The translations under genes and the position numbers were made by a program. Below the pieces are notes generated by a model. The model was given only the letters and a program-made list of their open reading frames with translations. It had not been told where the DNA came from and did no database searches. DNA of 64,000 bases from an uncultured Gemmatimonadaceae bacterium (GTDB lineage: Bacteria > Gemmatimonadota > Gemmatimonadetes > Gemmatimonadales > Gemmatimonadaceae), in assembly GCA_963781585.1 (NCBI GenBank), contig CAWAGQ010000008.1, positions 64,001-128,000 on the forward strand. The letters are read 5' to 3'. Of this stretch, positions 13,551-52,129 are shown piece by piece. Numbering within the stretch: the stretch's first letter is position 1; every line of letters starts with the position of its first letter.

Positions 13551-15948
<2,398 letters not shown>

Positions 15949-16526: not shown

Positions 16527-16939
16527 GGTTCTGGGATTCATCGGCGCTCGTACCGCTCGTGCTCGAACAGCCCCTGTCCGCGCGCGCGCGCGCCTTCCAC
16601 GACGAGGATCCCGAACTGGTCGTCTGGTGGGGCTCAGTCGTCGAGTGTGCCTCGGCCATCAGCCGGCTGCACCGCGATGGCGGGTTGACCGACGGCCAGG
16701 AGGAGGCGGCGCGATCGCTTCTCGCGACGCTCCGAAGCAGCTGGTTCGAGATCCAGGCGGGAGACGCGGTGCGGGAGCAGGCCCTCCGGCTTCTTCGCCT
16801 GCATCCCCTACGCGCGGCGGATTCGTTGCAGCTGGCGGCCGGCGTGGAATGGGCCGGCTCGCCGCCAGTGGGCGACTTCGTGTCGTTCGACAATCGCCTC
16901 CGCGCCGCCGCGCAACGGGAGGGATTCCGCGCGCCGTGA
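16523..16939 (+). CDS. vapC: VapC-type PIN toxin
   Basis: FWDSSALVPL, LRAADSLQLA and SFDNRL..AA..EGF; GTGA overlap with the antitoxin. Confidence 0.9.
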   Translation: MRFWDSSALVPLVLEQPLSARARAFHDEDPELVVWWGSVVECASAISRLHRDGGLTDGQEEAARSLLATLRSSWFEIQAGDAVREQALRLLRLHPLRAADSLQLAAGVEWAGSPPVGDFVSFDNRLRAAAQREGFRAP

Positions 16940-17023
16940 GAACCGGGCCGTGTCCTCGCCGGCGCTCTTTCCCTCACTCGCCCCGCCGCCACTTTCCCGG
17001 CGTCTCCCGCATCGATCCGGCCA

Positions 17024-18655
17024 TTGGGCGAAACGCGCGTTGACCTGTTCCACCTGCTCGAGGATCTCGCCGGTGCGTATCCCGGCGAGCTGGGAGACAC
17101 CATCCTCACGGAGATCGTCGCCAACGCGCTCGACTCGGGCGCGTCGACCATCGCTGTTTCGGCCGACACCGCGAACTCCACGCTCACGGTGGTCGACAAT
17201 GGAGCCGGCATGCGCCGAGCGGAGCTGCGCCGGTTCCACGACATCGCCGCGACCACGAAGGAGCGCGGCCAGGGCATAGGCTTCGCAGGCGTCGGAATCA
17301 AGCTCGGACTGCTCGTAAGCGACGAGGTGGTGACCGAAACCGGGCGCGGCAAGGATCACGCCTGTACCACGTGGGCGTTCGCCAACCGGAAGCGCGCCCT
17401 CTGGCAGTGGGTTCCCCCAAGGGACCTGGTGACCGGCACGGGTACCGCCGTGCAGTTGCGCCTCCAGAATCCGCTTTCTCCCCTGCTCGACGGAGCGCTT
17501 CTCGAGGCACGCCTTGCCCGCCACTTCGAGCCGCTGTTCGATTCGTTCTTCGACGAGGTGCTCCGCGGCCAGTATCCGAAGGGCGTCCGCTTCACGGTCA
17601 ACGGCCGGACGCTCGAACGACGCACCGGGCCGGTCGGCGAGATGGCGCGGGTGGCGGTCCACCTCGCCCGGAAACGCAAGCCGGCGGCCACGGGCTATCT
17701 CGTCAGGCACGCCATGCGCCTTGCCGACGATCAGCGCGGCGTCGCGATCAGCACCTTCGGCAAGGTGATCAAGCGCGGCTGGGACTGGCTCGGCCTCAGT
17801 CCCGCGAATCCGGAATTCGTGAACGGCCTCGTCGAAGCACCGGCGCTTGCGATGAGCCTCACGCTGAACAAGGCGGACTTTCTGCGAACGGGTCCGCGCG
17901 GCGCCGTCTATCTCGCGTATCGCAAGGCCATGCAGGAGGCGCTCGCGCAGCAGCTCGCGGCGTGGGGCAACGCGCACAACGCGCACGAACGCACGCGGCG
18001 CCGCGCGGCCCGCCCGGTGGAGCGCGACGTCGAAACCGTCCTGCTCGATCTGGCCGACGCGTTTCCCATGATCGCGATGCTCGTGGAACGCCGGAGCGGA
18101 GGACAGCGAAAGCTGCTGATGGGCCGCGGCGATGGCACCGGCGCGCCGCAACCCATGCTGCTGCCGCCGGAGACAGCGGAAGGCGCGCCGATCGTCGCGC
18201 CCCCGGAAGAAGCGCCCGAAGCCGAGTCGCCCGCCGCCGGCGAGGCGGCGCCTGACGAGCGGGACGCGGAGCCGGAGCTGCCGAGCACACGGGCGGAGCC
18301 TCCGGGCAGCCCCGACCTGCCCGGCACCGCGCCGCTCCAGCTGCCGCAGCGGAAAGGCCGGCGCCGGCCGACACGACTCGGCCTAACGATTCAGTTCGAG
18401 TCCCGCCCTGACGATCCGGAGATCGGGCGCCTTGTGGAGACGACCGTGTGGGTGAATGACGCGCACCCCGCCTACGTGCGCGCCGCCGCATCGCGCGCGG
18501 AGTCGTATCACCTGGCGCTTTCGGTGGCCATGGCGCTGGCGCGGGTGGCGGTCGAGCCCGCGCAGGAACATGAATTCGTCTCCGCATTTCTCGGACGGTG
18601 GGGCGAAGCCGCCGTGGGTGCGCGCACGGCGAGGCGGCGGACACGGAAGGGATGA
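17024..18655 (+). CDS. GHKL (HSP90/MutL/MORC-like) ATP-binding protein
   Basis: EIVANALD, VVDNGAGM and GIGFAGVGIK Bergerat-fold boxes; Pro/Glu-rich linker near the C terminus. Confidence 0.8.
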   Translation: MGETRVDLFHLLEDLAGAYPGELGDTILTEIVANALDSGASTIAVSADTANSTLTVVDNGAGMRRAELRRFHDIAATTKERGQGIGFAGVGIKLGLLVSDEVVTETGRGKDHACTTWAFANRKRALWQWVPPRDLVTGTGTAVQLRLQNPLSPLLDGALLEARLARHFEPLFDSFFDEVLRGQYPKGVRFTVNGRTLERRTGPVGEMARVAVHLARKRKPAATGYLVRHAMRLADDQRGVAISTFGKVIKRGWDWLGLSPANPEFVNGLVEAPALAMSLTLNKADFLRTGPRGAVYLAYRKAMQEALAQQLAAWGNAHNAHERTRRRAARPVERDVETVLLDLADAFPMIAMLVERRSGGQRKLLMGRGDGTGAPQPMLLPPETAEGAPIVAPPEEAPEAESPAAGEAAPDERDAEPELPSTRAEPPGSPDLPGTAPLQLPQRKGRRRPTRLGLTIQFESRPDDPEIGRLVETTVWVNDAHPAYVRAAASRAESYHLALSVAMALARVAVEPAQEHEFVSAFLGRWGEAAVGARTARRRTRKG

Positions 18656-18724
18656 CTCCGGACGGAGGTTGTACCGTTGACGCCCTGGCGTGCTTCCCTG
18701 GACGTCATGGCTTGAGTCCGACCG

Positions 18725-18825
18725 ATGCCCACCCTCGACACCGACTGGCGGCTTCGCCTCGCAATGCGGAGCATCCGAACCGCGAGTTCCTCGCCGAGCG
18801 CTTCGAGCGGTTCCGGGCCGCGTAG
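18725..18825 (+). pseudogene. Probable internally deleted HNH restriction endonuclease scar
   Basis: MPTLDTDWRLRLA joins out of frame to PRNAEHPNREFLAERFERFRAA*, resembling both termini of COG3440-like HNH proteins (from memory). Confidence 0.4.
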
Positions 18826-18931
18826 AGTCCGGTCCGTACGTCGCTTGGGCAGGGAATCCGGCCGCACGGTGCTTGTGCGGGCAGGACTTCTTAGTTAAAC
18901 TTAGGCCGTATTCTTTAATAGTGCCGCACGC

Positions 18932-18951
18932 TATTCAAACCGACTTGAATA
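18932..18951. promoter_or_regulatory. Palindrome upstream of the Fic gene (possible autoregulatory operator)
   Basis: TATTCAA-accgac-TTGAATA within an AT-rich stretch (about 18890-18955). Confidence 0.5.
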
Positions 18952-19924
18952 AGCGCCAAGCCACCGCATGAAGCGGGCTCAGTCGGGGCGATACGAGATC
19001 ACCTCGGCCGGCGGTGAGCGCGTGCGCGCGTTCGTGCCGGATCCCCTTCCTCCACGGCCGCCGCTCGCTCTCACTGGCCGGTTGCAGCAATCGCTCGAGG
19101 CCGCAGTCCTGGCCACTGGCCGTCTCGATGGGGTCTCCACGTTGCTGCCCGATAGGTCACTCTTCCTTTACACCTACGTGCGAAAGGAGGCAGTGCTCTC
19201 ATCACAGATTGAAGGGACGCAGTCGTCTCTGTCCGACCTGCTGCTCTTCGAGCTTGACGAAGCTCCTGGTGTGCCCGTGGACGATGTCGCGGAAGTATCC
19301 AACTACGTGGCGGCGCTGGATCACGGGCTCGCCCGCATGCGTGGTGGATTCCCGCTGACCAATCGGCTGATCCGTGAAATCCACGGCGTGCTGTTGTCCC
19401 GTGGGCGCGGGGCCGGCAGGGCTCCCGGTGCATTTCGACGGTCGCAGAACTGGATCGGAGGCACGCGCCCCGGCAACGCCGCATTCGTGCCCCCGCCGGC
19501 GCACGCCGTGCAGGATTGCATGTCCGCGCTCGAGCGTTTTCTCCATGCCACCGACGACGGCCTGCCGCTGCTCGTACGAGCCGGACTTGCGCACGTTCAG
19601 TTCGAGACGATTCATCCGTTTCTTGACGGCAACGGACGGGTAGGCCGCTTGCTTGTCACACTGCTTCTGGTGCATGCCGGCATGCTTCACGAGCCACTGC
19701 TCTATCCCAGCCTGTACCTCAAGCAACACCGGAATGCGTATTACGATTTGCTCACGCGGGTCAGAGAGAAGGGAGACTGGGAAGCCTGGCTGTCCTTCTT
19801 TCTCGTCGGGGTCACGGAGACGGCGGAAAGCGCGGCCATGACCGCGAACCGTTTGACGCAGCTGTTCAGTGAAGACCGCGCAAGGATCGAGACGTTGCGT
19901 ATTTCGCCACATCTCGTTCACCGA

Positions 19925-20015
19925 TTTCGCTCCAAGCCGTTCACCCATTTCGGTCCAAGCCGTTCAGTCGTTTCGCTCCAAGCCGTTCGCTCATTTCGGC
20001 CCATGCCGGTCACCC
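19925..20015 (+). repeat. IS21 left-end tandem repeats of about 23 bp (transposase-binding sites)
   Basis: TTTCGCTCCAAGCCGTTCA-like units; inverted related units at about 22585-22653. Confidence 0.8.
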
Positions 20016-20116
20016 GTGCCGGTCCAAGGCGATCGGGCGTGATGCGATGAGTTGAGGGCCGCGGGATCCCGTCCACTGCCAGCGATCCTTCCGGGAACTC
20101 TTTCCGGAGCGACGCC

Positions 20117-21778
20117 GTGGCAGCTGTGAGGGTATCCATGCGGAAGGTCCTTGACGTCGTGCGGCTCCGCTTCGAGGCGGGCCGCAGCCAGCATGAGATC
20201 GGGCTCGCCCTGGGGCTGGCGCAGAGCACCGTCGGCGAGTACCTGCGCCGCTTTCAGGCGAGCGGGCTCGCGTGGCCGCTCGCCGCGGACCTCGACGAGG
20301 CGGTGCTCGAGGCGCGGCTCTTTGCTCGTCCCGCTGCGCCGGCGGCCGAGGCGAGACCGCTCCCCGACTGGCCGACTGTTCACCGCGAGCTCCGGCGCAA
20401 GGGGGTGACGCTCCAGCTCCTGTGGCACGAGTACAAACAGGGCGAAGCGGACGGCGCGGCGTGCTATCAGTACACTCAGTTCTGCCGCCACTACCACGCG
20501 TGGGCCGCCCAGCTCGATCCGGTGCTCCGGCAGCAGCACACAGCGGGCGAGCGCACCTTCGTGGACTATGCGGGCCAGACCATCGACGTCGTCGACACGA
20601 CGACGGGCGAGGTCCGCGCGGCGCAGCTCTTCCTCGGCGTGCTCGGCGCAAGCAACTACTTCTTCGCGGAGGCAACGTGGACGCAGACGCTGCCGGACTG
20701 GATCGCGTCGCATGTGCGCATGGTCGAGTATTTCGGGGGCGTCAGCGCCTTGATCGTGCCCGACAATTTGCGGAGCGGCGTGACGCACGCCTCGTTCTAC
20801 GAGCCGACCGTCAACGCGACCTATCAAGACTTCGCCACCCATTACGGCACGGCGATTCTACCCACGCGGGCCGCGCGGCCCCGCGACAAGGCGAAAGCGG
20901 AGTCGGGCGTGCTGGTCGCCGAGCGCTGGCTCCTGGCCCCCCTGCGCCATCACACCTTTACGTCGCTCGCGGAGCTCAATGGCGCGATTGCGCAGTTGCG
21001 GGAGGTTGCGAACGACCGGCCGTTCCAGAAGCTCGCCGGCTCGCGCCGCTCGCTCTTCGAGACGCTCGACCAACCGGCGCTCCGCCCGCTGCCCGCCACG
21101 CGCTACGAGCTGGCGGAATGGCGCACGGCGAAGGTGAACATCGATTATCACATCGCGGTCGACGGCCACTTCTATAGTGTGCCGTATGCCCTGGTGCGCG
21201 CGGCGGTCCGTGTCCGCCTCACCGCGTCGATGATCGAGGTGCTGCATGAGGGCAAGCGGGTGGCGACCCATGCGCGGAGCGCGCAGCGCGGGTGCTTCAC
21301 GACCGAGCCCGCGCATCGGCCCAAGTCGCATCAGGCGCACCTCGAGTGGACGCCCTCCCGTCTGGTCCACTGGGGCGCCAGCATTGGCCCGTCGACCGGG
21401 GCGCTCGTGACGAGGATCCTCGAGCGCTGGCCGCATCCCGAGCAGGGGTACCGCGCGTGTCTCGGCCTCTTGTCCCTGCGCAAACGCTACCCCGACGCGC
21501 GGCTGGAAGCCGCGTGTGTCCGCGCGCTCACCACCGGCGCGACGAGTTACAAGTCGGTGAAGTCGATCCTCGCCGCCGGGCTCGATCAGGTCGCCCCGGA
21601 GGAGCCACCACCCCTGCGGCTGCCGGCGACGCACGCCCACATCCGCGGCGCCGACTACTACGCCGACTCCCCGGCTCCGGAGTCCGCGCTGGAACTCCCC
21701 CGGTCGTCTTCGGCCTCCTTGTCCTCCTCCTCCTCCTCCTCCTCCTCCTCCTCTACGTCTGGAGACCGCTCATGCTGA
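20117..21778 (+). CDS. istA: IS21 transposase IstA
   Basis: FVDYAG, IVPDNL and PRDKAKAE DDE motifs; HAHIRGADYY near the C terminus. Confidence 0.95.
   Translation: MAAVRVSMRKVLDVVRLRFEAGRSQHEIGLALGLAQSTVGEYLRRFQASGLAWPLAADLDEAVLEARLFARPAAPAAEARPLPDWPTVHRELRRKGVTLQLLWHEYKQGEADGAACYQYTQFCRHYHAWAAQLDPVLRQQHTAGERTFVDYAGQTIDVVDTTTGEVRAAQLFLGVLGASNYFFAEATWTQTLPDWIASHVRMVEYFGGVSALIVPDNLRSGVTHASFYEPTVNATYQDFATHYGTAILPTRAARPRDKAKAESGVLVAERWLLAPLRHHTFTSLAELNGAIAQLREVANDRPFQKLAGSRRSLFETLDQPALRPLPATRYELAEWRTAKVNIDYHIAVDGHFYSVPYALVRAAVRVRLTASMIEVLHEGKRVATHARSAQRGCFTTEPAHRPKSHQAHLEWTPSRLVHWGASIGPSTGALVTRILERWPHPEQGYRACLGLLSLRKRYPDARLEAACVRALTTGATSYKSVKSILAAGLDQVAPEEPPPLRLPATHAHIRGADYYADSPAPESALELPRSSSASLSSSSSSSSSSSTSGDRSC
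21722..21751 (+). repeat. (TCC)10 microsatellite encoding a poly-Ser tail in IstA
   Basis: Ten perfect TCC units. Confidence 0.9.
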
Positions 21779-22590
21779 TGCAACAAACGCTCGACCTCCT
21801 GCACACGCTGCGGCTCCCCGGAATGGCCCAAGCGCTCGAAGAACAGCAGGGTGTGCCGGATCTCGCGAGTCTCGCTTTTGAAGACCGCCTCGCGCTCCTC
21901 CTTGAACGGGAGCGCCTCGGCCGCGACGATCGGCGACTCACGCGGCTGCTCCAGATCGCACGCTTTCGCGAGGCGGCCTGTCTGGAGGACGTGAACTTCC
22001 GCGTGAAGCGCGGCCTCGACCGGAACATCTTCCTCCGGCTCGGTACCGGCGACTGGATCCGGCACCATGACGTGATTCTCATGGTCGGTCCCACTGGAAC
22101 GGGGAAGACCTGGCTGGCCTGTGCGCTCGGCCACAGTGCGTGCCGCCAAGGGCACGTGGTCCGCTACGTCCGTCTGCCGCGACTCCTCAGCGAGCTGGCG
22201 ATTGCGCGCGGTGATGGATCGTACGGACGGCTCCTGCAACAACTCGCCAAGACCGACCTGCTCATCCTGGATGACTGGGGGCTCGCCCCGCTCGGCGATC
22301 GCGAACGCCGCGATCTCCTCGAAGTGATCGAAGATCGATCCGGTCGGCGCTCGACTCTCGTAACCAGCCAAGTGCCCGTGGACCACTGGCACGAACTCGT
22401 CGGCGACGCCACGTTTGGCGACGCCATCCTCGATCGCCTCGTCCATCACGCGCACCGCATCACGCTGACCGGAGGCTCGCTCCGGAAACTCAAACGGCCC
22501 AGGCCGTGTCCCCTACCACCGAATAACCGTGACTCCACCGATCCCGTGTCTCTCCGCTCGTCGCTGAACGCGATCGTCCGAACCCCGTGA
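21772..22590 (+). CDS. istB: IS21 helper ATPase IstB
   Basis: GPTGTGKTWLACA Walker A, LLILDDWG Walker B, DAILDRLVH. Confidence 0.95.
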   Translation: MLMQQTLDLLHTLRLPGMAQALEEQQGVPDLASLAFEDRLALLLERERLGRDDRRLTRLLQIARFREAACLEDVNFRVKRGLDRNIFLRLGTGDWIRHHDVILMVGPTGTGKTWLACALGHSACRQGHVVRYVRLPRLLSELAIARGDGSYGRLLQQLAKTDLLILDDWGLAPLGDRERRDLLEVIEDRSGRRSTLVTSQVPVDHWHELVGDATFGDAILDRLVHHAHRITLTGGSLRKLKRPRPCPLPPNNRDSTDPVSLRSSLNAIVRTP

Positions 22591-23130
22591 ACGCTTTGGA
22601 GCGAAACGGCTGACCGGCTTCACGCGAAACGCGTGACCGACTTGAGCGAAATACGAGACGTCAGGACGTCGTGCCGGTTCGGCGCTCAGGGTTCACGATG
22701 CGCTCAAGGCCCGCCCCATACTCTCGATGCCGGAAATCGCCAGACGGACCAGGCTGGGCTTCCCGACCGCCTCTTCGGCAATGGAGCGCCTTGTCTCGTC
22801 AGGCATAGCCCGCGAGCTCACCGGCAGGAGACGAAACCGGTTGTTTGTCTACACGCGCTACCTGGCCGTACTGAATGAAGGAACGGAGCCCATTCTTCCT
22901 TCCGGGACAAGGCGCACATGACGTCAGACGCCGCCCTTTCCACCGGGTTGGCTTCGACGGCCCAACAGGCACATTCATCGGCTGGTAAGCGCGGGAGCGC
23001 GGCTTTCCACACGGCCTCCGCACAGAGCGTCCGCCTAACCATCCGGCGCATGACGTGGCCACGACCGGGTCCCGCCGCCGCACGGCTCCGCTCTGGACGT
23101 GAGGAAAAGCTCGAATCGCCGTGACCCCGA

Positions 23131-23453
23131 CGGTGAGCTACGCGGGGTGTCTCGACAACTGGATGGACACGATGTGGTGGAACGAGCAGTGGATGGGGTG
23201 GCCCACTGGGCCGAAGTCCTCGGTGTGGTCGAACCTTGGCCAAAGCGGACCCGGCCGCCAAGGGATGGTGCTGCCGGTAGTGGGGAGCTCGACACCAACG
23301 TCGATCCGTCGTCAACCATGCAAGCGGTGAACGCGCTGATCAAGGCGAACAAGACGTTCGATCTCCTGGTGGTGCCGGGAGAGGGCTCATGGGGCCGGGC
23401 GGCGCGGGATCACGGCGGCGTACGGGGAGCACGAGCGGTGAGACTATTTTGTG
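23131..23453 (+). repeat. Degenerate direct copy of the S9 peptidase 3' end (15548-15867)
   Basis: Long identical runs such as TGGTGGAACGAGCAGTGGATGGGGTGGCCCA and GAGCTCGACACCAACGTCGATCCGTCGTC, with indels and a stop. Confidence 0.92.
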
Positions 23454-23469
23454 TGGGCCATGGCCACGG

Positions 23470-23522
23470 TTGACCGCGCCCAGTCGACGTGCTAGGTTCC
23501 ATTCTGCTTCCATTATGGAACC
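23470..23522 (+). promoter_or_regulatory. Promoter and operator of the RHH-VapC pair
   Basis: TTGACC(23470)-17 bp-TAGGTT; inverted repeat GGTTCCAT(23495-23502)...ATGGAACC(23515-23522). Confidence 0.55.
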
Positions 23523-23531
23523 CGCCGACCC

Positions 23532-23774
23532 ATGGCTACCCTTACCATCAAGAGCATCCCGGACCCGCTCTATCGCCAGCTCAAGGAACGGGCCGCGGAG
23601 CATCGACGCAGTCTCAACAGCGAGGTCATCGTTTGCCTGGAGCAGGCCGTCGCCGGCAACGTTCCTGATCCTGTCACCACGCTGGCAAAGGCCGACGCCC
23701 TTCGGGCCAAGCTTCGCGTGCCGCGGTTGACCGAGGCTCGGCTCCGGACCGCCAAGTCCGCCGGACGACCGTGA
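23532..23774 (+). CDS. Arc/FitA-like ribbon-helix-helix antitoxin
   Basis: MATLTIKSIPDPLYRQLKERAAEHRRSLNSEVI. Confidence 0.9.
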   Translation: MATLTIKSIPDPLYRQLKERAAEHRRSLNSEVIVCLEQAVAGNVPDPVTTLAKADALRAKLRVPRLTEARLRTAKSAGRP

Positions 23775-24187
23775 TCGTCGTTGACACCAACGTCATCGCG
23801 TACCTGCTCCTCCCCGGTGATCAGACGGAGGCTGCGCGGGGCGCCCTCGCGCGGGACGCGGCGTGGGCCGCGCCGATCCTCTGGCGCAGTGAGCTCCGCA
23901 ATGTGCTTCGCGGCTACATGCGGCAGCGTCACCTCACCTTGGCGCGGGCGCGCGAGGTGCAGGGCACGGCGGAGGAGCTGATGGTCGGCCGCGAGTTTCA
24001 GGTGGAGAGCCCCGCGGTTCTGGACCTCGCTGCAGCGAGTGGTCTGAGCGCGTACGACTGCGAGTTCGTCGCGCTGGCGCGCGCGCTTGAAGTGCCGCTG
24101 GTTACGTCCGATCGGGATGTCCTGGCGAGCTTTCCCAGGGACACGGTCTCGCTGACGCTCTTCGGGTCCGGTGCGCCGGGCGCCTAA
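23771..24187 (+). CDS. vapC: VapC-type PIN toxin
   Basis: MIVVDTNVIAY and SAYDCEFVALA..L.VPLVTSD. Confidence 0.92.
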   Translation: MIVVDTNVIAYLLLPGDQTEAARGALARDAAWAAPILWRSELRNVLRGYMRQRHLTLARAREVQGTAEELMVGREFQVESPAVLDLAAASGLSAYDCEFVALARALEVPLVTSDRDVLASFPRDTVSLTLFGSGAPGA

Positions 24188-24376
24188 CGTTGCTTACTCG
24201 GGGCGGTTTTCGGTCGCGCGGCGTGAGGCGTAGCTCCCATTTGAGCCAGCCCTGGCGGAAGTGCGTGCGTCAATACGCAATGGGCACCGATAAGTTGGCT
24301 GAACGAGCGAAGTGAGGCGGCCGGGCTGTTGGCAACATCGACCATGCGCCTTGGTGATATGCACGGTTGACCAACT

Positions 24377-24450
24377 GAACGCATGCATCGGACCCTCAAG
24401 CGCGCGATCGCCCCGCCGCCGCCCGGACACGGCACAGTCAGCAGCAGCCG
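24377..24450 (+). mobile_element. IS481-like transposase remnant
   Basis: Translates ERMHRTLKRAIAPPP then ARTRHSQQQ, like the HERMHRTLK..PPA....QQ motif of IS481-type transposases. Confidence 0.5.
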
Positions 24451-24497
24451 TACCCCGTTGTGCAGCCTACCTTAGGAGTGATGCCGCGCCAGACAAA

Positions 24498-25367
24498 ATG
24501 CTGACACCATTAGAGACTCTCCGACCGACAGCCCGACCTCGACTCATGGATCTCGTTCGCGACGCAGGGATCGACGTCTCGGACTGAGCGCAGTATGAGG
24601 GTGGGATCGCCCGCGCGGCTGCCAACCCGAAGTACTGCTATCAATGGGAGTTTGAGAATCCGGCAAAGATCGTAGTGCTGAGCATCTGGCACGCCCAACT
24701 TCGCCATGCCCATGGTGAGGTCACAATTGAAGACAACCTTCGTGACACGAGTAACTTCTACAAGAACGTGCCGGGGAAATCCCTTTGGAGGAAGCGTGCA
24801 GAGTCGTTTGATCGGGCCGTCGCGACAGCTGCGCAATCGGGCCTTGCGGTGCGCGCAATCATCTGCGACGGCGAAATGCGAGCTAAGTTCGACCTGAAGG
24901 CGCGAGCGTCACACGTCCATGCCAGGATGCTCGACAAGGCACCGTGGGCAGTGGTTAGGTACGAGCGGCAAAACGGTCGCTTCATCCTTCGGCGTGGGGC
25001 ATCGCCGAACCGGCTAAAGGACCAGTTCTCGGTCGATCAGTTTCCGAGCGCGCCGACGGAAACTCGATCTGTTTCAGGTGAAGTATTCGTCCGCTCAGCG
25101 GCTGTCCGAAGCCAAGCGCTGAAACGAGCCAATGGGCGGTGTGAATGGTGCGGGGAATTGGGTTTCGTCACGGACGACGGATCAATCTTCCTGGAGACGC
25201 ACCACGTAGTACCGCTCAGCGAACGAGGATCCGACACGCTCCTTAACGTGGTTGCCCTATGCGCAAATCATCATCGTGAGGCGCACTTGGGCTCGTCGCG
25301 GGTCAGCATCCGCAACCGCCTGCTGCAGTTTCTAAGGCCGCGGGTGCCCAAGCGGGGCACAGTTTGA
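24498..25367 (+). pseudogene. McrA-like HNH endonuclease with in-frame TGA at 24585-24587
   Basis: Frame continues across the stop (DVSD*AQYEGG..AANPKYCYQW); C-terminal RANGRCEWCG..LETHHVVPL..GSDT..NVVALCANHHREAH. Confidence 0.8.
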
Positions 25368-25453
25368 GAGCCGTTGCAGCTGCCACACTGGGCGAGTGGC
25401 CGCGGAGGCCGGCGGTCTAACTTAGGACCACACAACCTTCCTCTGGAACTCCG

Positions 25454-26233
25454 ATGCCGGACATGCCATGGCGTGACGCAATCGTTGAGGTGCTGCGCCG
25501 AGAGGGCGCAGCAATGCACTACACTGCGATCGCCGAGCATGTGGTCGCTGATGGACTCAGGAAGGCAGTCGGGGCAACCCCCGCATCAACGGTGAACGCG
25601 GTCATCACCACGTCTTTGAACGCCGAGGGGTCAAAGTCTCCATTTCAGCGAGTTGCCCGTGGCGAGTACGTCCTCGCATCTGCAACCAACATCGCGCCTC
25701 ATTCTGAGGTGGAGGCCGCGGCGCGCGCCGATGCCGAAGATGAGGTAGAAGGACCAGTTCACGCCTTTGGAATGTTCTGGGACAGAGACCGCGTCCGTTG
25801 GACAAATACTCCGTCACTCCTCGGAAGACAGCAGATAGGCGCCGACGCCGTGGAGATGACTGATCAGAGGGGCATCTACTTGCTGTACGACGGGCGTGAG
25901 GTCGTGTACGTAGGAAGAAGCACGGATCGCTCCCTTGGCACTCGGCTCTACGAGCACACCTATGACCGGCTGCGCACTCGTTGGAACCGGTTTTCATGGT
26001 TTGGGCTCTGCCCGGTGGAGGAAGATGGCAGTCTGGCAAGACCTGCAGGGGGCCAGAGCGCCGAGCAGTTTATTGCGGCAATGGAGGCCTTGCTCATCGA
26101 AGCCCTTGAGCCCGCGCAGAATCGCCGCCGAGGCGATGGGTTCACCGCGGTCGAATTCATTCAGGCCGATGACCCAGAACTTCACAAAGCCCAACTCAAG
26201 GCGGCAATTGCCCAACTTCAGTCCAAGCTATAG
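25454..26233 (+). CDS. HARE-HTH plus GIY-YIG nuclease-domain protein
   Basis: N-terminal DAIVEVL....AMHY..IAE..GATP..TV; GIYLLYDGREVVYVGRS; ME..LIE...P..N. Confidence 0.8.
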   Translation: MPDMPWRDAIVEVLRREGAAMHYTAIAEHVVADGLRKAVGATPASTVNAVITTSLNAEGSKSPFQRVARGEYVLASATNIAPHSEVEAAARADAEDEVEGPVHAFGMFWDRDRVRWTNTPSLLGRQQIGADAVEMTDQRGIYLLYDGREVVYVGRSTDRSLGTRLYEHTYDRLRTRWNRFSWFGLCPVEEDGSLARPAGGQSAEQFIAAMEALLIEALEPAQNRRRGDGFTAVEFIQADDPELHKAQLKAAIAQLQSKL

Positions 26234-26289
26234 CTCTTCCTCTCAAACGAGCAATAACTGCCGACGGCACCTCTTTCGGAAGCGGTCGG

Positions 26290-26471
26290 CCCGAACTTCT
26301 CCCGCGAAATCCCGAGTCGCCGACTCAGCTCGGCCGTCTTGGCTCCGGCCGCACGCTCCTGCAGGAAAGGATCCCGATGATTTGTTCTTCTGTGAAGCGG
26401 CCCGTGCGCATCGATCCTCCGTCGTGAGGATCGGCAAGAATGACCGGATCAGATTCCCGAGGGTAACGTCA
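26290..26471 (-). mobile_element. IS3-family left-end remnant with truncated orfA
   Basis: End TGACGTTACCCTCGGGAATCTGATCC at 26471; GGAGG RBS; ATG 26411 gives MRTGRFTEEQIIGIL, then shifts to QERAAGAKTAELSRRLGISRE. Confidence 0.75.
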
Positions 26472-26520
26472 GTACTGGATCCCGTTGCGGCGGATCACTA
26501 GCCCACGTACGATATCTGTT

Positions 26521-26667
26521 GGAGGTGGGTCAACACACCAATTGTCTCTCGTTGCGTTCTCGCAACGTGTGCTCATGACGCCATGCCTTACGCCACGCTC
26601 CATGTTTGCCTGAGTAGTCGACTGGGAGCGCTCGGAAAAGCGAGAATTACCGGTTGACTCCACCTCC
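26521..26667 (+). ncRNA. Putative retron msr-msd RNA
   Basis: a1/a2-like inverted repeat GGAGGTGGGTCAAC (26521-26534) and GTTGAC(T)CCACCTCC (26653-26667); hairpin CGTTGCG-ttct-CGCAACG (26550-26567); CGCTCC/GGAGCG stem (26596-26630); lies directly upstream of the retron RT. Confidence 0.7.
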
Positions 26668-28285
26668 TCTGCCCACGCGTGCGATTGGCGCCTGCCTTCG
26701 CGCACCCCCAGAGACGTTTCGCGACAACTTCCTTCGGTTGGGTAGTCGACGAGCACTCGCACGTCTGCTCGAGGTTCCGGGTTCCTACCTTATATGGCAC
26801 CTCTACCGCTTCCCGGCTCATCGAAGGTATCGCACGTTCCAGCTTCTCAAGCGAAATGGCAAGCAGCGCACCATTTTCGCGCCCGCTTCCAAGATCCGCA
26901 TTCTCCAGCAGAAGCTGTCGCAGGTTCTGTACGAGGTGTATGTCCCGAATCTCGTGGCGCACGGTTTTGTCCGCGAGCGCAATATTCGAACAAACGCCGA
27001 GTTTCACCGTAATCGCGAATGGGTTCTCCGACTCGATCTTGAGGACTTCTTTCCTGCGATAAACTTCGGAAGAGTACGGGGAATGTTCATGCGCCGGCCG
27101 TACAACCTGCCTGCGCCCGTCGCGACAGTCTTGGCGCAGCTGTGCTGCTTCGAGGGCTCGCTCCCGCAGGGGGCGCCGACATCGCCGATCATTTCCAATA
27201 TGATCTGCTCAAGACTAGATAATGAACTTCGGCGACTTGCAGCAGATCATCGATGTACGGTAACGCGATACGCGGAACACCTCACTAGCTCGACGAACAG
27301 AGCATTTCCGAAGTCTATCGCCTCTCGCGACCTCACACCGAACGGCTTCATAACGTCGAACGGCCCGGGCCTGGTTCACGTAATCGATTCGAATGGGTTC
27401 AGAGTTCACCCGACTAAGTCTCGTCTCCTCTGGAGGCACCAGCGGCAGGATGTTACGGGCGTGGTCATCAACGAGAAAGCTAATGTGCCAAGACGGTTTC
27501 GAGACCAGATCAGGAGCATGCTTCATGCCTGGGAGGACTTTGGGCTGGATGCCGCAGCCGCACAGCACGATCGATATGACAAGAAGCGTCGAACTGGTAC
27601 ACAGAGGCCATCGTATCGACGAGTGCTGGCGGGAAAGCTTGCGCACTTGAGGATGATCAAGGGTCCCGAAGATCCGACCTACCGTCGACTATGGCAGAGA
27701 TACGAGCGTCTGGCTGGCCATCCAACGGTGGACGACGCGATATGGATTCTACGAAGGACCAGAAGCTTCTGGGACAGCGTTCATGCTGAAAGGGACCGGT
27801 CTCGTCACTTGTTTCCATGTGGTTGCAGCCAAGGGCGTGGATGCGTTCCGCCCTCTGGCACCATCTGCGAGATTCCAGGTCGTCGTTAAGCACGCATTGA
27901 ACGAAATCGATCTTGCGTTTGCGATCTCACCCGCGCCGAAGTGTCATTCCCTCCACCGCGACCTACAAACCCTTTGTCAGTCGGTGCGAAGGTGAGAATA
28001 CTCGGGTATCCGGATTGGAATCGCGGCAATAGCATTTTTGACGCGACCGGCGAAATCGTCCTGGTCAGACGGCACTTCGGCGCGCCCTATGCCCTCGTAA
28101 GCGTGTCTACGCGCGCTGGCAACAGTGGCGGACCCGTGCTAGATGAATCGGGCAGAGTCATCGGCGTCGTCAGGACTGGAGAGCGCTGGCATGGTGACGA
28201 GGAAGGGAAAGAGCACGGCATACTGGGGATTACGGCACTGGAGATCGTTAGCGGCGCCGGAGCTGACGGGTCACGCATGCTCTGA
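26654..28285 (+). pseudogene. Retron reverse transcriptase fused to a trypsin-like serine protease (YADD to YAEH; frameshifts near 27752 and 27950)
   Basis: AHGF, NAEFH (region X), DLEDFFP, LPQGAPTSP, VTG (region Y); then AIWIL/EGPEASGTAF..LVTCFHVV..IDLA../..LGYP..GNSGGPV. Confidence 0.88.
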
Positions 28286-28406
28286 CGTGCTCTCGGGTAA
28301 GTCCAATAACTGCCGTCGGCTAACGGGTGCGTCTTCCATCTGAAGGCATCTGGCGCGTCGGACTCCGCGGTAGATACGTATTCTCTGAGTGACCGGCGCG
28401 CCGGAT

Positions 28407-29540
28407 TCACGGTCGCTCGTCGCCGCGGGCCCGCCCCTCCATCCGCCCAGTCAACATCTCCGGCCAGACCGCCAGCGAATCCCCATTCACCCAGTTCCGC
28501 GCACGAGCCGCCGCGTTGTAGGCCCGCAGGAACGCCGCCGCGTCGCACTCCGTCGCGATGAGACGCGGCCGGCCGTACGCGCGCTCAACGGTCACGGCCA
28601 TCTTCCACCCCACCGTGTACCACGGGCCCTGCACACCGAAGAAGCTCATCCCCGCGGCAGTCACTGAATCGTCAGGCACCGTGGGATCGAGCGCGCGACA
28701 GCAGAACTTCGTCAGCTCCGACACATCGGCGTTGAAGTGGCTCACGTCCCGGTCCCAGCGCGCCCGCGTGGCGCTGTCGCTCTGTGCATGCGGATGCACG
28801 TCGGGCCCGCCGGCGGCAGCAAGCATCGCGAGCCCCTCGCCCAACGCGCTCGCCCAGTTCCGGGCGCGCGCCACCGGCGCCGGCACGCCACTGGCGCCCG
28901 CCGCACCGCATGCCGCCGAGAGCCCGATGTGGTGCAGCTCGTGCGCGACGGTGTTGTCCGGTTCCGCCCGCGACTTCGCCGGATCCACGTACAGCATGAT
29001 CACGCGCCGACCCGCGAAGTCGAAGACGAAGCTGTTCGTCTGCGGCTTGATCGCCAGAAACACCGTTGTCTGGAGCGGCGTGCCCGCCGGCAGATACGCC
29101 AGCGCCCGCCGCGCCGCGGCCGAGACGTCAAGCGCGCGCCAGGCGGCGAGGGTCCGGTCGAGCGCCGCCCACCGCGCAACAAGGGTGTCCGAGAGCAGAA
29201 ACGCACGGAACGATGAGTCGGCGAACGCCCGGCCCATCACTGCCTGACGTTGCTGGAGCGCGCGAAAGCCGAGGCTCCCGAACAAGCGCGCCCAGTCGCC
29301 CGTGGTAGGGTCGCGCCCGTCATGACGCGCCCGCACGATCGCGAGCGCCGCGTCCGCCTCGTCGGTCACGAACACGAGGCCGCCCGCCTGCCCGGCGCGG
29401 ACGACCGGGATGCCGGGCGCCCGCACGCTCACAGTGGCCGGACCGGGCACGCGCGAAGATCGGACCGCGCGCCACGGCGGTGACACGGCCCCTGACACGA
29501 GGACGCCAGACGACAGCAGAACAGGCAACACGACCCGCAT
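28407..29540 (-). CDS. Putative zinc-dependent protease (DUF5700-like)
   Basis: VAHELHHIG, GEGLAMLAAAG and QGPWYTVG; start at 29540 inferred. Confidence 0.72.
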   Translation of the reverse strand: MRVVLPVLLSSGVLVSGAVSPPWRAVRSSRVPGPATVSVRAPGIPVVRAGQAGGLVFVTDEADAALAIVRARHDGRDPTTGDWARLFGSLGFRALQQRQAVMGRAFADSSFRAFLLSDTLVARWAALDRTLAAWRALDVSAAARRALAYLPAGTPLQTTVFLAIKPQTNSFVFDFAGRRVIMLYVDPAKSRAEPDNTVAHELHHIGLSAACGAAGASGVPAPVARARNWASALGEGLAMLAAAGGPDVHPHAQSDSATRARWDRDVSHFNADVSELTKFCCRALDPTVPDDSVTAAGMSFFGVQGPWYTVGWKMAVTVERAYGRPRLIATECDAAAFLRAYNAAARARNWVNGDSLAVWPEMLTGRMEGRARGDERP

Positions 29541-29862
29541 CCCGACGGACACTGCGCGCTCACTCCGTAACGGCATGCCACGCGTTCGACACGCGCGCCC
29601 CACGCCGCGGTTGCGCGAGAATGCGCCCACTCCCCACTTGTCGGTTCGCCGAGGAGGCCGTCGCTCCACACGACCATCTTCCCGCGGCCCCCGCGCCCAG
29701 TGCAAATAGATGGGCCTTTCCCTCGCAAGCCCCGAATCCGGCCGGTCAGCCCCCGACGGGGGTCGCCATGTCGTGCAAGAGTGTCGCGCGGTTGCCCGCG
29801 CATTCCTCCGGCCGCATACTCTCCCCATCCGGTCGTCCCTCCACCTCGCCGCGAGCCCTCCC

Positions 29863-32181
29863 ATGTCCGCCCACTCGGTCCGCCCGGCCGTCCCCTCCGC
29901 CCTCCGCGCCCTCGCCTGGTCGGCATTCGCTCTCGTCGCGTTCAGCACGCGCGTCCCTGCGCAGCAGACGAACGGCCGCGCCTACACCATCGACGACAAC
30001 CTCAACCTGCGATCGGTGCGCATCGAGGACGTCAGCAGCGACGGCCGGTGGGTGGCCATCACGGTGCGCGTGCGACGCGACGCGCTCGGCGTGGACAACG
30101 CCCGCTTCGGCGACCCGACCTACGTCACGCCGTCGATCGCCGAGTTCCAGTTGATCGACGCGACCACCGGGCAGGCGCGCGCGATCCTCCCCGGCAAGGT
30201 GCAGGTGCGCGGCGCGACATTCACGAAGGACGGGAGCAAGCTCGCCTTCTACCTCATGAAGGGCGACGACTGGGTGCTCGAGGTGACCGACGTCGCGGCC
30301 AACCGCACCCGGGCGATCGCCGTCCGTACCACGAAGCAGATCGCATCCAGCGCGCCGCTCGAGTGGGCACCCGACGGCAACTCGATGCTGATTACGCTCC
30401 GCCCCGACGGCTGGGCAGCCGAGGCGCGCGCGGCATTCCTGCACCTGACCGAAGGACCGATCGTCGTGCAGGACGCGAAGGAACCGTTCCTCTCCTGGGA
30501 CGCGGTGCGCAACCTCGGCGACCGGCAGATTCCGGCCATCGTCACCCTGGGCGACGGCGCCGTGCGCGAGATCCTGCCCGAGACGCCGATCCGCGGCGCG
30601 CAATTCTCCACGGACGGCTCGTACCTCGCCTACTCCACCGCCGAACCGAAGAAGACGTCGTACGACAACAACTCGGGAACGGCCTACGGCGTCTTCAAGC
30701 TCGCGCTCGCCGCCGGCGCACGGCCCGACACGCTGGTGAAGCCCGCCCAGCACCGGCTGATGCCGCGATGGAACGACAGCGCGACCGCGTTCGCCTGGGC
30801 CGACAAGGGCAACGTATTCGTCCGCTGGCTGGGCGCCGACAGCGCCCGAAACCTCACGGCGAAGTACCGGAAGGCGGAGCCGAAGACCGACACCGCGGGG
30901 ACCGACGCCGCGAAGACCGACAGCGCGAAGACCGACACCACCAGGACACCGTACTCGCTGGTCAGCTGGCGGCCCGACGGTGGCGCACTGCTCGTGAGCG
31001 CGAAGGACGGCTACCACCTCCTCGACGCGCGCACGGATTCGATGACGCTCGTCTATCCGTTCGAGGCCGACACGGCCACCCGGCCCACACGCGGTTTCGC
31101 CGGATGGAGCCGCGACGGGCGCTACCTGTTCGTCTCCCGTTCGGCGAAGGACCGCTGGGCGCGCGGACTCGAGCGCTACGACCTCACTACTCGGCAGGCG
31201 ACCGACCTCGCGATCGACACCAATCTCTACTCCAGCTGGCACGTGTCCGACGACGGATCGCGCTTCGTGTTCGAGCGGTCCGACGGCGACCGTCCGAACG
31301 AGGTGTACACAGCCGGCCGTGACCTCGCCGACGCGCACGCGATCACGAGGCTTAACCCGCAGCTCGACGGCGTGGCGCTCACGCACTCGCAGCTGGTGAG
31401 CTATCGCGACGCGGACGGGAAGAAGCTCTACGGCGTGCTGTACTATCCGTACGGCTACCAGCCCGGAACGAAGTACCCGCTCGTCGCGGAGATCTACGAG
31501 ACATTCTTCGACAACGGATTCAACGAGAACATGAACCTGCTCGCCGCGCGCGGGTGGTTCGTGTTCCACCCGTCGGTGGACCTGCAGATTGGCTACCCCG
31601 GCGAGGCGTGGGTAAAGGGCGTGACCGACGCGATCAACACGCTCGAGGACCGTGGCCTGGTGGACGGCACCAGGCTTGGCGTCGAGGGGACGAGCTACGG
31701 CGGGTACGCCACCAACCTGCTCATCACGCAGACCGACCGGTTCGCCGCCGCGGTGAACATCTCCGGTAAGGTGAACATCATCTCCTTCCTCGGCGACAGC
31801 CCGAAGATCGGGACGCGCAACTACAGCGCCGCGGAGAACGGGCAGGACCGCATCGGCGCGACGCTGTGGGAGGCGCCGCTCAAGTACATCCAGCACTCGG
31901 CCGTCATGTTCGCCGACCGCATCCACACGCCGCTGCTCATGCTCACCGGCAAGCAGGACTGGAACGTGCCGGACACCAACGAGCGCGAGATGTACTACGC
32001 GCTCCGCCGGCTGGGGAAGGAAGCGGTGTGGGTGCAGTACGCCGACGCCGGGCATGGCGCGGGCCGGGCCGGGAACGAGCCGGACTTCCGGGACCACTGG
32101 ACGCGGATGTTCGACTGGTTCGGGACGCACTTCGAAAAGTCTGCGGAGAAGAAGAAGGCGGCGACGTCCGGAGCGCGGTGA
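29863..32181 (+). CDS. S9 prolyl oligopeptidase family peptidase
   Basis: GTSYGG, GKQDWNV and AGHG; propeller repeats. Confidence 0.9.
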   Translation: MSAHSVRPAVPSALRALAWSAFALVAFSTRVPAQQTNGRAYTIDDNLNLRSVRIEDVSSDGRWVAITVRVRRDALGVDNARFGDPTYVTPSIAEFQLIDATTGQARAILPGKVQVRGATFTKDGSKLAFYLMKGDDWVLEVTDVAANRTRAIAVRTTKQIASSAPLEWAPDGNSMLITLRPDGWAAEARAAFLHLTEGPIVVQDAKEPFLSWDAVRNLGDRQIPAIVTLGDGAVREILPETPIRGAQFSTDGSYLAYSTAEPKKTSYDNNSGTAYGVFKLALAAGARPDTLVKPAQHRLMPRWNDSATAFAWADKGNVFVRWLGADSARNLTAKYRKAEPKTDTAGTDAAKTDSAKTDTTRTPYSLVSWRPDGGALLVSAKDGYHLLDARTDSMTLVYPFEADTATRPTRGFAGWSRDGRYLFVSRSAKDRWARGLERYDLTTRQATDLAIDTNLYSSWHVSDDGSRFVFERSDGDRPNEVYTAGRDLADAHAITRLNPQLDGVALTHSQLVSYRDADGKKLYGVLYYPYGYQPGTKYPLVAEIYETFFDNGFNENMNLLAARGWFVFHPSVDLQIGYPGEAWVKGVTDAINTLEDRGLVDGTRLGVEGTSYGGYATNLLITQTDRFAAAVNISGKVNIISFLGDSPKIGTRNYSAAENGQDRIGATLWEAPLKYIQHSAVMFADRIHTPLLMLTGKQDWNVPDTNEREMYYALRRLGKEAVWVQYADAGHGAGRAGNEPDFRDHWTRMFDWFGTHFEKSAEKKKAATSGAR

Positions 32182-51991: not shown

Positions 51992-52129
51992 GACCGCCTC
52001 CATGTGCGGGTTGCTGTGAAACGCCGTCGTGCGTCCCGGCCAGACGTCCAGGTCGTGCTCGCACCGCATCGTGACGCCCGCACCTGGGGGGCTGTGGAGC
52101 CCGCAATGAACGACTTCCCGTCCGTGGCG

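Follow-up and report, generated by a model that had tools for sequence, protein, structure and literature searches.

The stretch 26521-28285 of the window (the whole 64,000-nucleotide segment of Gemmatimonadaceae DNA that was analysed) raises the question of whether it encodes a working retron with a protease fused to its reverse transcriptase (RT), or only the remains of one. The initial annotation had proposed an msDNA-gated protease defence system. Comparison with homologous loci makes it quite probable that the stretch is instead a pseudogenised type XI retron, composed of a non-coding RNA (ncRNA) gene and a once-single RT-protease gene. The ancestral product would have been about 545 aa long, joining a retron RT to a serine protease of HtrA/MarP-like type at its C-terminus. 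The copy is probably dead in its host genome. Its features are as follows.

26521-26534, plus strand: a1, 5' inverted-repeat arm closing the retron ncRNA (GGAGGTGGGTCAAC); fold and anchored duplex test.
26537-26573, plus strand: conserved msr-like 5' motif, with ATTG at 26541-26544 and stem-loop SL1 (stem within 26550-26568); match to covariance model R1.
26574-26637, plus strand: putative msd region (template), which includes a hairpin of about 36 nt; MFE fold, position by analogy with retron ncRNAs.
26638-26647, plus strand: conserved purine-rich motif AAGCGAGAAT, a short way 5' of a2; comparison by eye.
26653-26667, plus strand: a2, the 3' arm (GTTGAC-T-CCACCTCC, with T26659 bulged); fold and anchored duplex test.
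26654-28285, plus strand: RT-protease gene, spread over three reading frames.
26654-27751, plus strand: RT domain and helical linker, 366 codons, frame 2; PADLOC, Pfam RVT_1 and tree.
26993-27007, plus strand: NAEFH motif (NAxxH); RT-frame translation.
27269-27307, plus strand: degenerate catalytic box, YAEH at 27269-27280 followed by a scrambled patch; alignment to the nearest relative.
27452-27460, plus strand: VTG motif; RT-frame translation.
27751-27752, plus strand: frameshift 1, a single additional base separating the ..WIL and EGP.. codons (ATT CTA, C, GAA GGA); by eye and frameshift-aware alignment.
27753-27962, plus strand: N-terminal half of the protease, frame 0, reading EGPEASGTAFMLKGTGLVTCFHVV..EIDLA; PADLOC and 91% identity to P0121.
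27816-27818, plus strand: catalytic His codon (TCFHVV); column invariant in 28/28 homologues.
27887-27889, plus strand: TAA closing the RT-frame ORF of 411 codons; ORF translation.
27909-27911, plus strand: catalytic Asp codon (EIDLA); column invariant in 28/28 homologues.
27918-27929, plus strand: second scrambled patch, 3' of the catalytic Asp; alignment to the nearest relative.
About 27957-27964, plus strand: frameshift 2, +2 nt compared with the nearest relative, where the RT frame is regained; frameshift-aware alignment, the exact base not fixed.
27965-28285, plus strand: C-terminal half of the protease, frame 2, from about 27965, reading PLSVGAKVRILGYPDWN..GNSGGPV; Trypsin_2 and PADLOC.
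28124-28126, plus strand: catalytic Ser codon (GNSGGP); column invariant in 28/28 homologues.
28283-28285, plus strand: stop codon of the C-terminal half of the protease; translation.

The RT frame corresponds to the ORF 26654-27889, which opens with a TTG codon overlapped by a2 and reads ..DDAIWIL as far as 27751. The extra base that the initial annotation had placed near 27752 was found at 27751/27752, and the compensating shift it had placed near 27950 lies slightly further downstream, at about 27957-27964. The second shift, of +2 nt, equals -1 in frame terms, and the frame returns to that of the RT because the two shifts sum to +3. Read-through across all three frames gives about 542 codons. 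The His, Asp and Ser codons of a full trypsin triad are present, as had been claimed; the single polypeptide that would unite them is a reconstruction, since the gene uses three frames. What is encoded is an RT-like protein of 411 codons with neither catalytic aspartates nor a protease, the +1 and +2 insertions having shifted the protease's His/Asp half into another frame. The ORF 27941-28285 starts with its own GTG. A promoter and terminator consensus scan of 26100-28600 gave counts at the level of shuffled sequence and no usefully placed site.

The lesions are best seen against the nearest relative, P0001/P0121. The RT is 97% identical to P0001, and the N-terminal half of the protease is 91% identical to P0121. 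Where the relative has YADD, the window reads YAEH, and the adjoining patch reads AEHLTSSTNRA in the window versus ADDITISSNTST in the relative, the window being one codon short; this patch would need five transversions, assuming guessed codons for the relative. The second patch, also one codon short, reads FA-IS versus VCDLA in the relative, and, like the relative, P0002-P0004, which are the closest three of the full-length fusions, have IDLAICS.. here. P0121 runs through WILEGPEAS unbroken at the site of frameshift 1. The initial annotation had missed both YAEH at 27269-27280 and the patch at 27918-27929. The relative carries its protease in one frame but is itself broken at three other sites, its RT-protease junction being lost and its linker scrambled. 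In total, at least seven frame-changing or codon-indel sites separate the window from its 97% relative, versus five isolated amino-acid changes. So many indels and clustered changes are not what ordinary neutral decay would usually leave, and a consensus artefact could have produced them too. A templated or quasi-palindromic origin of the scrambled patches was considered and rejected; no match to them elsewhere in the window exceeded 10-11 nt, a length judged, with no control, to be chance level for 128 kb.

The strongest alternative is that the gene is intact in the organism, where it would form a working type XI retron, and that the frameshifts and YAEH are assembly or consensus errors, arising for example in a strain-variable island. 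Most of the lesions are small indels and tight clusters of changes relative to an otherwise 97-99% identical sequence; the two frameshifts restore the frame, as a few local miscalls could; and the ncRNA elements look intact. The lesions are read from the assembly alone, and local misassembly or errors confined to the island are possible. Against this, the long uninterrupted multi-domain ORFs in the rest of the window imply a very low general indel error rate, and five or more events within 1.6 kb would require a strictly local cause. MacB-like permeases (811, 830 and 933 aa) are among these ORFs, as are an M14 peptidase 988 aa long and a BTAD/TPR protein of 1027 aa. Moreover, the independently assembled relative is broken too, in three different places, which points to real relaxed selection in the lineage. 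The flanking protein P0122 is in the database, but no protein 100% identical to the window RT is among the matches listed, an absence that fits a source annotation in which the RT was not called as a protein. Because the long multi-domain genes of the window are intact and its contig extends over 433,755 nt, the lesions are probably real, and an intact gene spoiled in the assembly is unlikely, although it retains some weight.

It is far less probable that the gene functions as encoded, whether through programmed ribosomal frameshifting (+1/-1) or because a catalytically inert RT scaffold and a separate protease fragment act together as a split system. The frames do compensate one another, and ORF 27941-28285 could be initiated at its GTG. 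However, a single unbroken RT plus protease frame of 520-627 codons is present at 19/20 homologous loci, where no frameshift is needed, and no slippery heptamer or stop-codon context was seen by eye at 27745-27760. The product of 27941-28285 alone would lack the His and Asp of the triad. The YADD (as RYADD), His, Asp and Ser columns are invariant in 28/28 RT-protease homologues, so that an inert RT is no family trait.

The pseudogenised type XI retron thus remains the preferred reading, and its family assignment draws on both domains. The three pieces match the PADLOC RT-Protease_XI profile (models PDLC02959/02960) collinearly, covering profile positions 4 to 502 overall: the RT piece matches positions 4-325 (E 3.4e-117, 390.5 bits), the N-terminal protease piece 348-400/407 (E 1.5e-9) and the C-terminal protease piece 415-502 (E 1.3e-15). 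Judged by these profile positions, the match is no chance event. Pfam RVT_1 was found in the RT (9.9e-13), and Pfam Trypsin_2 matched in two segments, profile 1-56 at 0.0087, which is under the Pfam cut-off, and profile 68-144 at 3.8e-10. The top-scoring HMMs for the RT are retron clade-8 models. RT-TIR_XII (3.2e-119, 397 bits, PADLOC) scores marginally above RT-Protease_XI for the RT part.

In a FastTree phylogeny of 121 rows, built from RT homologues rather than from a reference set of all 13 types and so showing neighbours rather than a clade number, the window and P0001 fall in a starred 5-row clade with three protease fusions and in a starred 8-row clade with six. Every other full-length row of the latter (6/6) is a protease fusion. 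Trypsin_2 is present in 34 of the best 120 RT homologues, including every full-length one with at least 47% identity (P0002-P0006 and P0008), and at least six different C-terminal domain types occur among the protein matches of the RT lineage. The NAEFH and VTG motifs to which the initial annotation had pointed are both present, and NAxxH and VTG are named in PMC13712802 as characteristic of retron RTs.

These features support a retron-derived locus of the RT-protease (type XI) kind, as first proposed. A non-retron RT (Abi/UG/DRT, group II intron or DGR) next to the remnant of an unrelated protease gene is very improbable, since the weak tails in its favour (a group II intron RT model at 1.4e-11 for the window RT; Drt2 and Drt3a models at 6e-6 and 4e-5 for the homologue P0002) contrast with retron models at 300-400 bits versus 44 bits for group II, with NAxxH and VTG, with an upstream a1/a2 ncRNA of retron type, with protease pieces that match specifically the C-terminal part of the fused profile, and with one frame shared by RT and protease in 19/20 relatives. 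Neither outcome that had been named as a possible refutation was observed: the RT showed no clustering with the Abi, UG, group II or DGR classes, and in the homologues the protease was not a separate gene. The protease domain lies directly C-terminal to the RT and is collinear with the fused profile, but RT and protease do not share one uninterrupted ORF. The locus is filed as a remnant of the family, and not as a functional member, because the ORF is interrupted.

A retron-type ncRNA gene adjoins the RT upstream on the same strand, closed by a1/a2. The predicted fold pairs 26521-26534 with 26653-26658 plus 26660-26667 (z -2.47). The anchored a1/a2 duplex has a dG of -26.5 kcal/mol, a value matched by 0/300 random window segments; the window is among the 24/34 entries in which no control (0/300) reached the observed duplex. 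A cruder, ungapped inverted-repeat score near the RT start was dropped as evidence because it did not exceed chance (40/40 random positions scored at least as high as the window, and 204/840 controls reached the observed score over 21 sequences), and the anchored duplex test was used in its place.

The covariance model R1, which was built without the window sequence and covers the 5' motif only, yields one match (14.6 bits, E 0.57) when both strands of the entire window (128 kb) are searched. This match is weak when taken alone. In other loci, 35/42 R1 matches sit upstream of an RT, and SL1 shows covariation at 6/6 pairs in the model-fitted alignment. The model missed 5/19 of its training loci (L012, L025, L027, L029 and L067) at the expected place with E <= 5. 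A uAAG..GAAu-like string lies 5' of a2 in most of 31 loci (by eye, unscored), and in homologous loci the end of a2 falls between -16 and +55 nt of the approximate start of the RT. The signature of a1/a2, ATTG, SL1 and uAAG..GAAu before a2 is covariance-supported and occurs 5' of RTs of the clade with and without a protease. G26544 might, speculatively, be the branching G. In a MAFFT alignment of the whole ncRNA candidates, a1 and a2 were out of register, and no full-length covariance model was obtained. An Rfam gathering scan of the whole window gave no matches, and a tRNA scan found none.

At the structural level, comparisons were made with the intact homologue P0002. Its nearest solved structure by sequence is Retron Ec67/Eco2 (phmmer, E 1.4e-49). 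The RT part of its AlphaFold model (pLDDT 89.2) matches Eco2 with a Foldseek E of 5e-28 and 31% identity over about 351 columns, and the C-terminal domain matches Rv3671c/MarP, MucD, DegS and HtrA1 (TM relative to the target 0.50-0.69). The NCBIfam model MarP_fam_protase gave 1.7e-13, well under family cut-offs. The protease resembles HtrA/MarP at the level of the fold only. It shares with HtrA, DegS and MarP (Rv3671c) the chymotrypsin fold and the conserved His-Asp-Ser triad columns, but no PDZ domain or membrane anchor was detected, and it is fused to an RT.

Among retrons, Retron-Eco2 (Ec67; type I-C RT-TOPRIM; PDB 9i2f, 9lm3 and 9s1f) likewise consists of no more than an ncRNA and one fused RT-effector gene; its effector, however, is a TOPRIM nuclease and that of type XI a chymotrypsin-fold protease. 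The RT part also scores comparably with the type XII RT-TIR retron (PADLOC RT-TIR_XII; NCBIfam NF042941, score 337 versus a cut-off of 600), although no TIR homology was found and the C-terminal pieces match the protease profile only. The upstream RNA motif is also found at RT loci of the same clade that lack a protease.

RT-protease retrons are type XI in Table 1 of Mestre 2020 (PMC7736814), and the window locus agrees with the type described there in domain order, single-gene make-up and protease-fused RT clade. For type XI, the account in Mestre 2020 (PMC7736814) gives no ncRNA, unlike the window locus, which has one upstream, as in Khan et al. 2024, whose Discussion refers to validated ncRNAs for clade 8, type XI, and to RT-DNA production (10.1101/2024.01.25.577267). 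The class is already described and catalogued, and the present copy is a further, broken example, differing from a working type XI retron in the absence of YADD, two frameshifts and two scrambled patches. In the literature searched, no experimental defence data for type XI, no direct evidence of msDNA gating in any type XI retron and no test of what the fused protease cuts were found.

The locus lies at the right edge of a lower-GC island of defence and mobile-element genes in a Gemmatimonadaceae chromosome. The host proposed at the outset, a member of the Gemmatimonadota, agrees with the flanking genes, for which 8/8 organism-bearing match names are Gemmatimonadaceae or Gemmatimonadetes. SoFic and an HNH gene resembling a type IV REase are present in the same island, a context that lends support to a putative anti-phage role of the type XI locus. 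The HNH and HARE-HTH neighbours of the window are encoded at 0/80 related loci, and among 366 neighbour ORFs at 20 RT-protease loci the only shared cluster covers two loci. The RT-protease retron thus appears to be a single-gene, stand-alone unit with no conserved accessory gene. The HARE-HTH neighbour (25454-26233) belongs to no PADLOC or NCBIfam family; by eye, its C-terminus is GIY-YIG-like.

How intact members might work can be proposed from Retron-Eco2, the sole mechanistic template for type XI. The available account of that system (PMC12916289) describes an msDNA scaffold that cages the effector domains, degradation of the msDNA by phage DenB, and cleavage of tRNAs by the freed nuclease. 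By analogy with this sister-clade TOPRIM caging, we infer that the protease of type XI may be gated by msDNA. In intact members, the RT would reverse-transcribe the msd part of the ncRNA, priming at the branching G beside the a1/a2 stem. The msDNA-RNA hybrid would remain bound and keep the fused protease inactive, until a phage factor releases it by damaging or displacing the msDNA. The released protease would then cleave host or phage proteins, and the infection would be aborted. The window copy reads as a pseudogene, with YAEH for YADD and broken frames, rather than as the working defence system that the initial proposal would require. Because YADD is lost, no msDNA would be expected from it even with the frames mended, and the copy is expected to provide no msDNA, no protease and no defence.

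In itself the copy carries little weight, given that type XI is catalogued, that standard defence-finder profiles find it and that the copy is broken. Its modest value lies in documenting a type XI retron, clearly decayed, from a Gemmatimonadaceae genome. The ncRNA signature may help in annotating the ncRNAs of this RT clade, canonical type XI ones included; Mestre 2020 had no model for the latter. The intact close homologues (P0002-P0006, L001 and L011) are usable for testing the targets of the protease. A more far-reaching conjecture, which we regard as rather doubtful, is that two near-identical Gemmatimonadaceae lineages broke one RT-protease retron independently, at different sites, leaving a possible record of toxin-antitoxin logic: a failure or misfire of the msDNA would make the fused protease a liability, soon to be knocked out. 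If the lesions are real, they could constitute indirect in vivo evidence for toxicity of a protease that msDNA does not restrain.

The RT-protease retron at window positions 26521-28285 is read in three pieces. According to the ORF list and three-frame translations, the RT-frame ORF (26654-27889, window frame 2, TTG start) holds NAEFH (26993-27007) and VTG (27452-27460), runs ..HPTVDDAIWIL as far as 27751, and is terminated as encoded by TAA at 27887-89. From 27753 window frame 0 reads EGPEASGTAFMLKGTGLVTCFHVV...EIDLA, and the original RT frame resumes at ~27965 with PLSVGAKVRILGYPDWN...GNSGGPV, up to a stop at 28283-85. Pfam identifies RVT_1 on the first piece and Trypsin_2 on the other two (positions 1-56, weakly, on the middle piece and 68-144 on the last). 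The PADLOC RT-Protease_XI profile is collinear over all three (4-325, E 3e-117; 348-400/407, 1.5e-9; 415-502, 1.3e-15). The RT motifs and split protease frames of the initial annotation are thus present, with Pfam and PADLOC in agreement, and the RT-protease match is far beyond chance.

The RT part scores about equally with the PADLOC models RT-TIR_XII (397 bits) and RT-Protease_XI (390.5), followed by RT-Toprim_I-C (346); of these three, the protease model alone matches the downstream pieces. NCBIfam holds no RT-protease model; its Retron_TIR_antiphage and retron_Ec67_fus both match the RT under cut-off, and the group II intron RT model reaches merely 44 bits. PF13365 (Trypsin_2) is present on 34 of the best 120 protein matches, including all full-length homologues of at least 47% identity (P0002-P0006 and P0008). 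In a FastTree phylogeny of RT parts (121 rows, SH-like support values only), the window and P0001, the RT-side piece of its nearest relative, group together (100*) and nest in starred sets of five rows (three protease fusions) and eight rows (six protease fusions); the blastp-based labels caught only 24 protease fusions, so rows labeled "other" include some fusions. Among solved structures, Retron Ec67/Eco2 is nearest in sequence (E 1.4e-49). For the intact homologue P0002, an AlphaFold model calculated from a 28-row alignment (mean pLDDT 89.2, pTM 0.74) matches Eco2 over residues ~1-350 (Foldseek, E 5e-28), and its C-terminal domain matches Rv3671c/MarP, MucD, DegS, DegP and HtrA1. The proposed retron class stands: the best PADLOC models for the RT are retron models, the tree puts it among protease fusions, and 19 of 20 RT-protease loci from other genomes encode the protease in one frame with the RT.

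Other C-terminal Pfam domains occur among the matches P0028-P0115: PF13676/PF01582 (4 proteins), PF04471 (2), PF00211 (3), PF14491 (2), PF13271 (1) and PF19960 (1), a list that we take to comprise TIR, Mrr_cat, guanylate cyclase, DUF4435 and DUF4062. Many RT homologues of 515-590 aa in this range have no annotated C-terminal domain. The variety suggests that effectors are widely swapped on one RT chassis.

Frameshift-aware protein-to-DNA alignment of the window with its nearest relative (P0001 and the protease-side piece P0121) located lesions in both copies.

Lesions in the two copies, in window coordinates
27269-27307, window-specific: YADD patch
27752, window-specific: +1 nt
27918-29, window-specific: scrambled patch, one codon short (FA-IS vs VCDLA in the relative)
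~27963, window-specific: +2 nt
27638, relative-specific: 1-nt loss after ..AGK
27716 and 27742, relative-specific: -2/-1 pair

P0001 (332 aa) shares 319 of 330 residues with the window RT, and 9 of the 11 differences fall inside the catalytic patch alone, where P0001 has YADDITISSNTSTFPK and the window, shorter by one codon, has YAEHLTSSTNRA-FPK. Alignment with homologues shows the catalytic box of the window to be YAEH (27269-80), which the initial annotation overlooked. All 28 full-length RT-protease homologues keep R-Y-A-D-D, and the His, Asp and Ser columns of their protease are likewise invariant. If the relative uses the codons that we guess for it, 27269-27307 differs from P0001, within 45 nt, by five transversions and by deletions of 1 nt and 2 nt; the window yielded no copy that could have templated this patch. 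P0121 (209 aa, 91% identical), recovered by searching with the middle piece and encoded on a contig equal in length to that of P0001, reads WILEGPEAS..IDLAVCDLAP..HSLHASSNPLSVGAK in a single frame, and the three closest full-length fusions (P0002-P0004) have IDLAICS, which is relative-like at the 27918-29 patch. At the relative's own lesion sites the window retains the homologue-like state LAGHPTVDDAIWIL. Where one copy is broken, the other keeps the ancestral state; the ancestor they share was therefore intact, and each has since been interrupted. The 19 uninterrupted loci of other genomes have open frames of 520-627 codons; the sole interrupted frame is that of L022 (Parcubacteria-group), with a stop at 5969.

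The window retron is probably a true pseudogene. Window and relative differ mostly by small indels and by changes packed into tight clusters, a pattern unusual for neutral decay that would favor an artefact. However, ORFs elsewhere in the window are long and domain-complete (811-1027 aa), so a general indel error rate fails to account for at least five events in 1.6 kb, and the interruption of an independent relative likewise counts in favor of real lesions.

Upstream of the RT, the fold of 26510-26680 is closed by pairing of a1 (26521-34) with a2 (26653-58 and 26660-67, overlapping the TTG start) around internal hairpins (-60.3 kcal/mol, z -2.47; 3 of 200 shuffles equal or better). In 19 of the 20 RT-protease loci a similar inverted repeat occupies the corresponding position, with inner distances of 87-141 nt. 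About half of the loci have an ungapped repeat score clearly over chance, but several high-GC loci do not, nor does the window, where 40 of 40 controls scored as high or higher. A covariance model, R1, was therefore built for the conserved 5' motif (ATTG and a stem-loop) from the 19 loci with a convincing repeat, leaving out L060 and the window. Searched against both strands of the window, R1 has a single match, weak alone (14.6 bits, E 0.57), at 26537-73, directly 3' of a1. The 80 fetched RT loci yield 42 matches at E ≤ 5, of which 35 precede the RT match on its own strand by no more than ~330 nt, including at least 19 loci outside the training set (best E ~1e-4), and 7 lie elsewhere; five training loci were not recovered. 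L022 has a second, weaker match 3.2 kb downstream (8232-8269, E 0.12).

In the model-fitted alignment of R1 matches, all six stem pairs change on both sides, with 63 both-side-change cells vs 19.7 in shuffles (0 of 500 as high), and the paired fraction is 92.7% for the structure vs 30-72% in slid controls. When the 24 nt at the R1 match start were paired with the 160 nt downstream, with 160-nt segments drawn at random from the same sequence as controls, the window gave -26.5 kcal/mol, equaled by 0 of 300 controls. The same 0 of 300 was obtained in 24 of 34 entries (window plus 33 loci), including 13 of 19 non-training loci; in the remaining ten, 2 to 246 controls were as good. The R1 match start lies 107-170 nt from the a2 end among tested entries (131 nt in the window). 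By eye, most loci carry a purine-rich uAAG..GAAu string 5' of a2, which in the window is AAGCGAGAAT (26638-47). We conclude that the window bears the ncRNA typical of its RT clade, apparently intact; G26544 is our guess for the branching G. The R1 motif, together with an a1/a2 closure of fixed spacing, is likewise present ~100-300 nt 5' of the match in clade-8 RTs for which that match stops short of any protease (L002, L005, L010, L026, L004, L015, L020, L050 and others, including Nostoc and Microcoleus), so the ncRNA architecture seems common to different effector types of this clade.

An island of defense and mobile-element genes (16236-26233) lies upstream of the retron.

Genes near the retron
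13753-15948: full-length S9 peptidase
16236-16939: PIN toxin-antitoxin pair, Phd/YefM and PIN
17024-18655: GHKL-type ATPase, no PADLOC match
18968-20050: SoFic (PADLOC 5.7e-102)
20117-21778: IS21 istA (IstA)
within 21292-22590: IS21 istB (IstB)
23099-23473: 124-aa ORF, Peptidase_S9 fragment, matching profile 152-194 of 213 only (C-terminal part)
23532-24187: PIN toxin-antitoxin pair, FitA/VapB and VapC
24675-25367: HNH protein resembling type IV methyl-directed restriction enzymes
25454-26233: HARE-HTH protein, C-terminus GIY-YIG-like by eye, no family match
29710-32181: full-length S9 peptidase

The 23099-23473 ORF, next to the IS21 element, appears to be a gene fragment. GC is 0.56-0.60 over 24.2-28.3 kb vs 0.67-0.73 from ~28.5 kb onward. 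The flanking S9 peptidase is at most 86% identical to other database proteins, and all eight organism-named matches are from Gemmatimonadaceae or Gemmatimonadetes; the copy in the window lies on a contig of 433,755 nt. None of the 80 loci has the island neighbors beside its RT, and no neighbor family is common to the 20 RT-protease loci, which fits a single-gene system. Farther away, on the minus strand (50951-52069), two same-frame ORFs, one of 225 aa bearing a CxxCxxCC domain and one of 146 aa matching no family, have only a stop codon between them; they may be separate genes or a single gene interrupted by an in-frame stop.

Type XI was described by Mestre 2020 as clade 8 RTs fused to a trypsin-like protease, without recognizable ncRNA modules in that description (PMC7736814), where target-peptide cleavage is put forward as hypothesis only. 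Toro 2026 restates the canonical single RT-protease ORF and, where type XI-like systems are treated, gives ncRNA candidates for two protease-less lineages only (PMC13712802); the Discussion of Khan 2024 counts clade 8, type XI among validated ncRNAs (10.1101/2024.01.25.577267). The present analysis establishes the parts list, family-conserved RT and protease catalytic residues, a conserved ncRNA, no partner genes and structural kinship of the RT with Eco2. In Retron-Eco2, TOPRIM domains are reported to be caged by a branched msDNA scaffold; once phage DenB has degraded the msDNA, the released nuclease cuts tRNAs (PMC12916289). On this model, a type XI RT would produce msDNA from the msd (template part), the msDNA-RT assembly would hold back the fused protease, and a phage-caused change in the msDNA would free it to cleave its targets. 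The window allele is expected to yield nothing. Full-text searches found no paper on defense by type XI retrons or on what their protease cleaves. The class itself is known, and the window locus adds a new, though degenerate, member to it.
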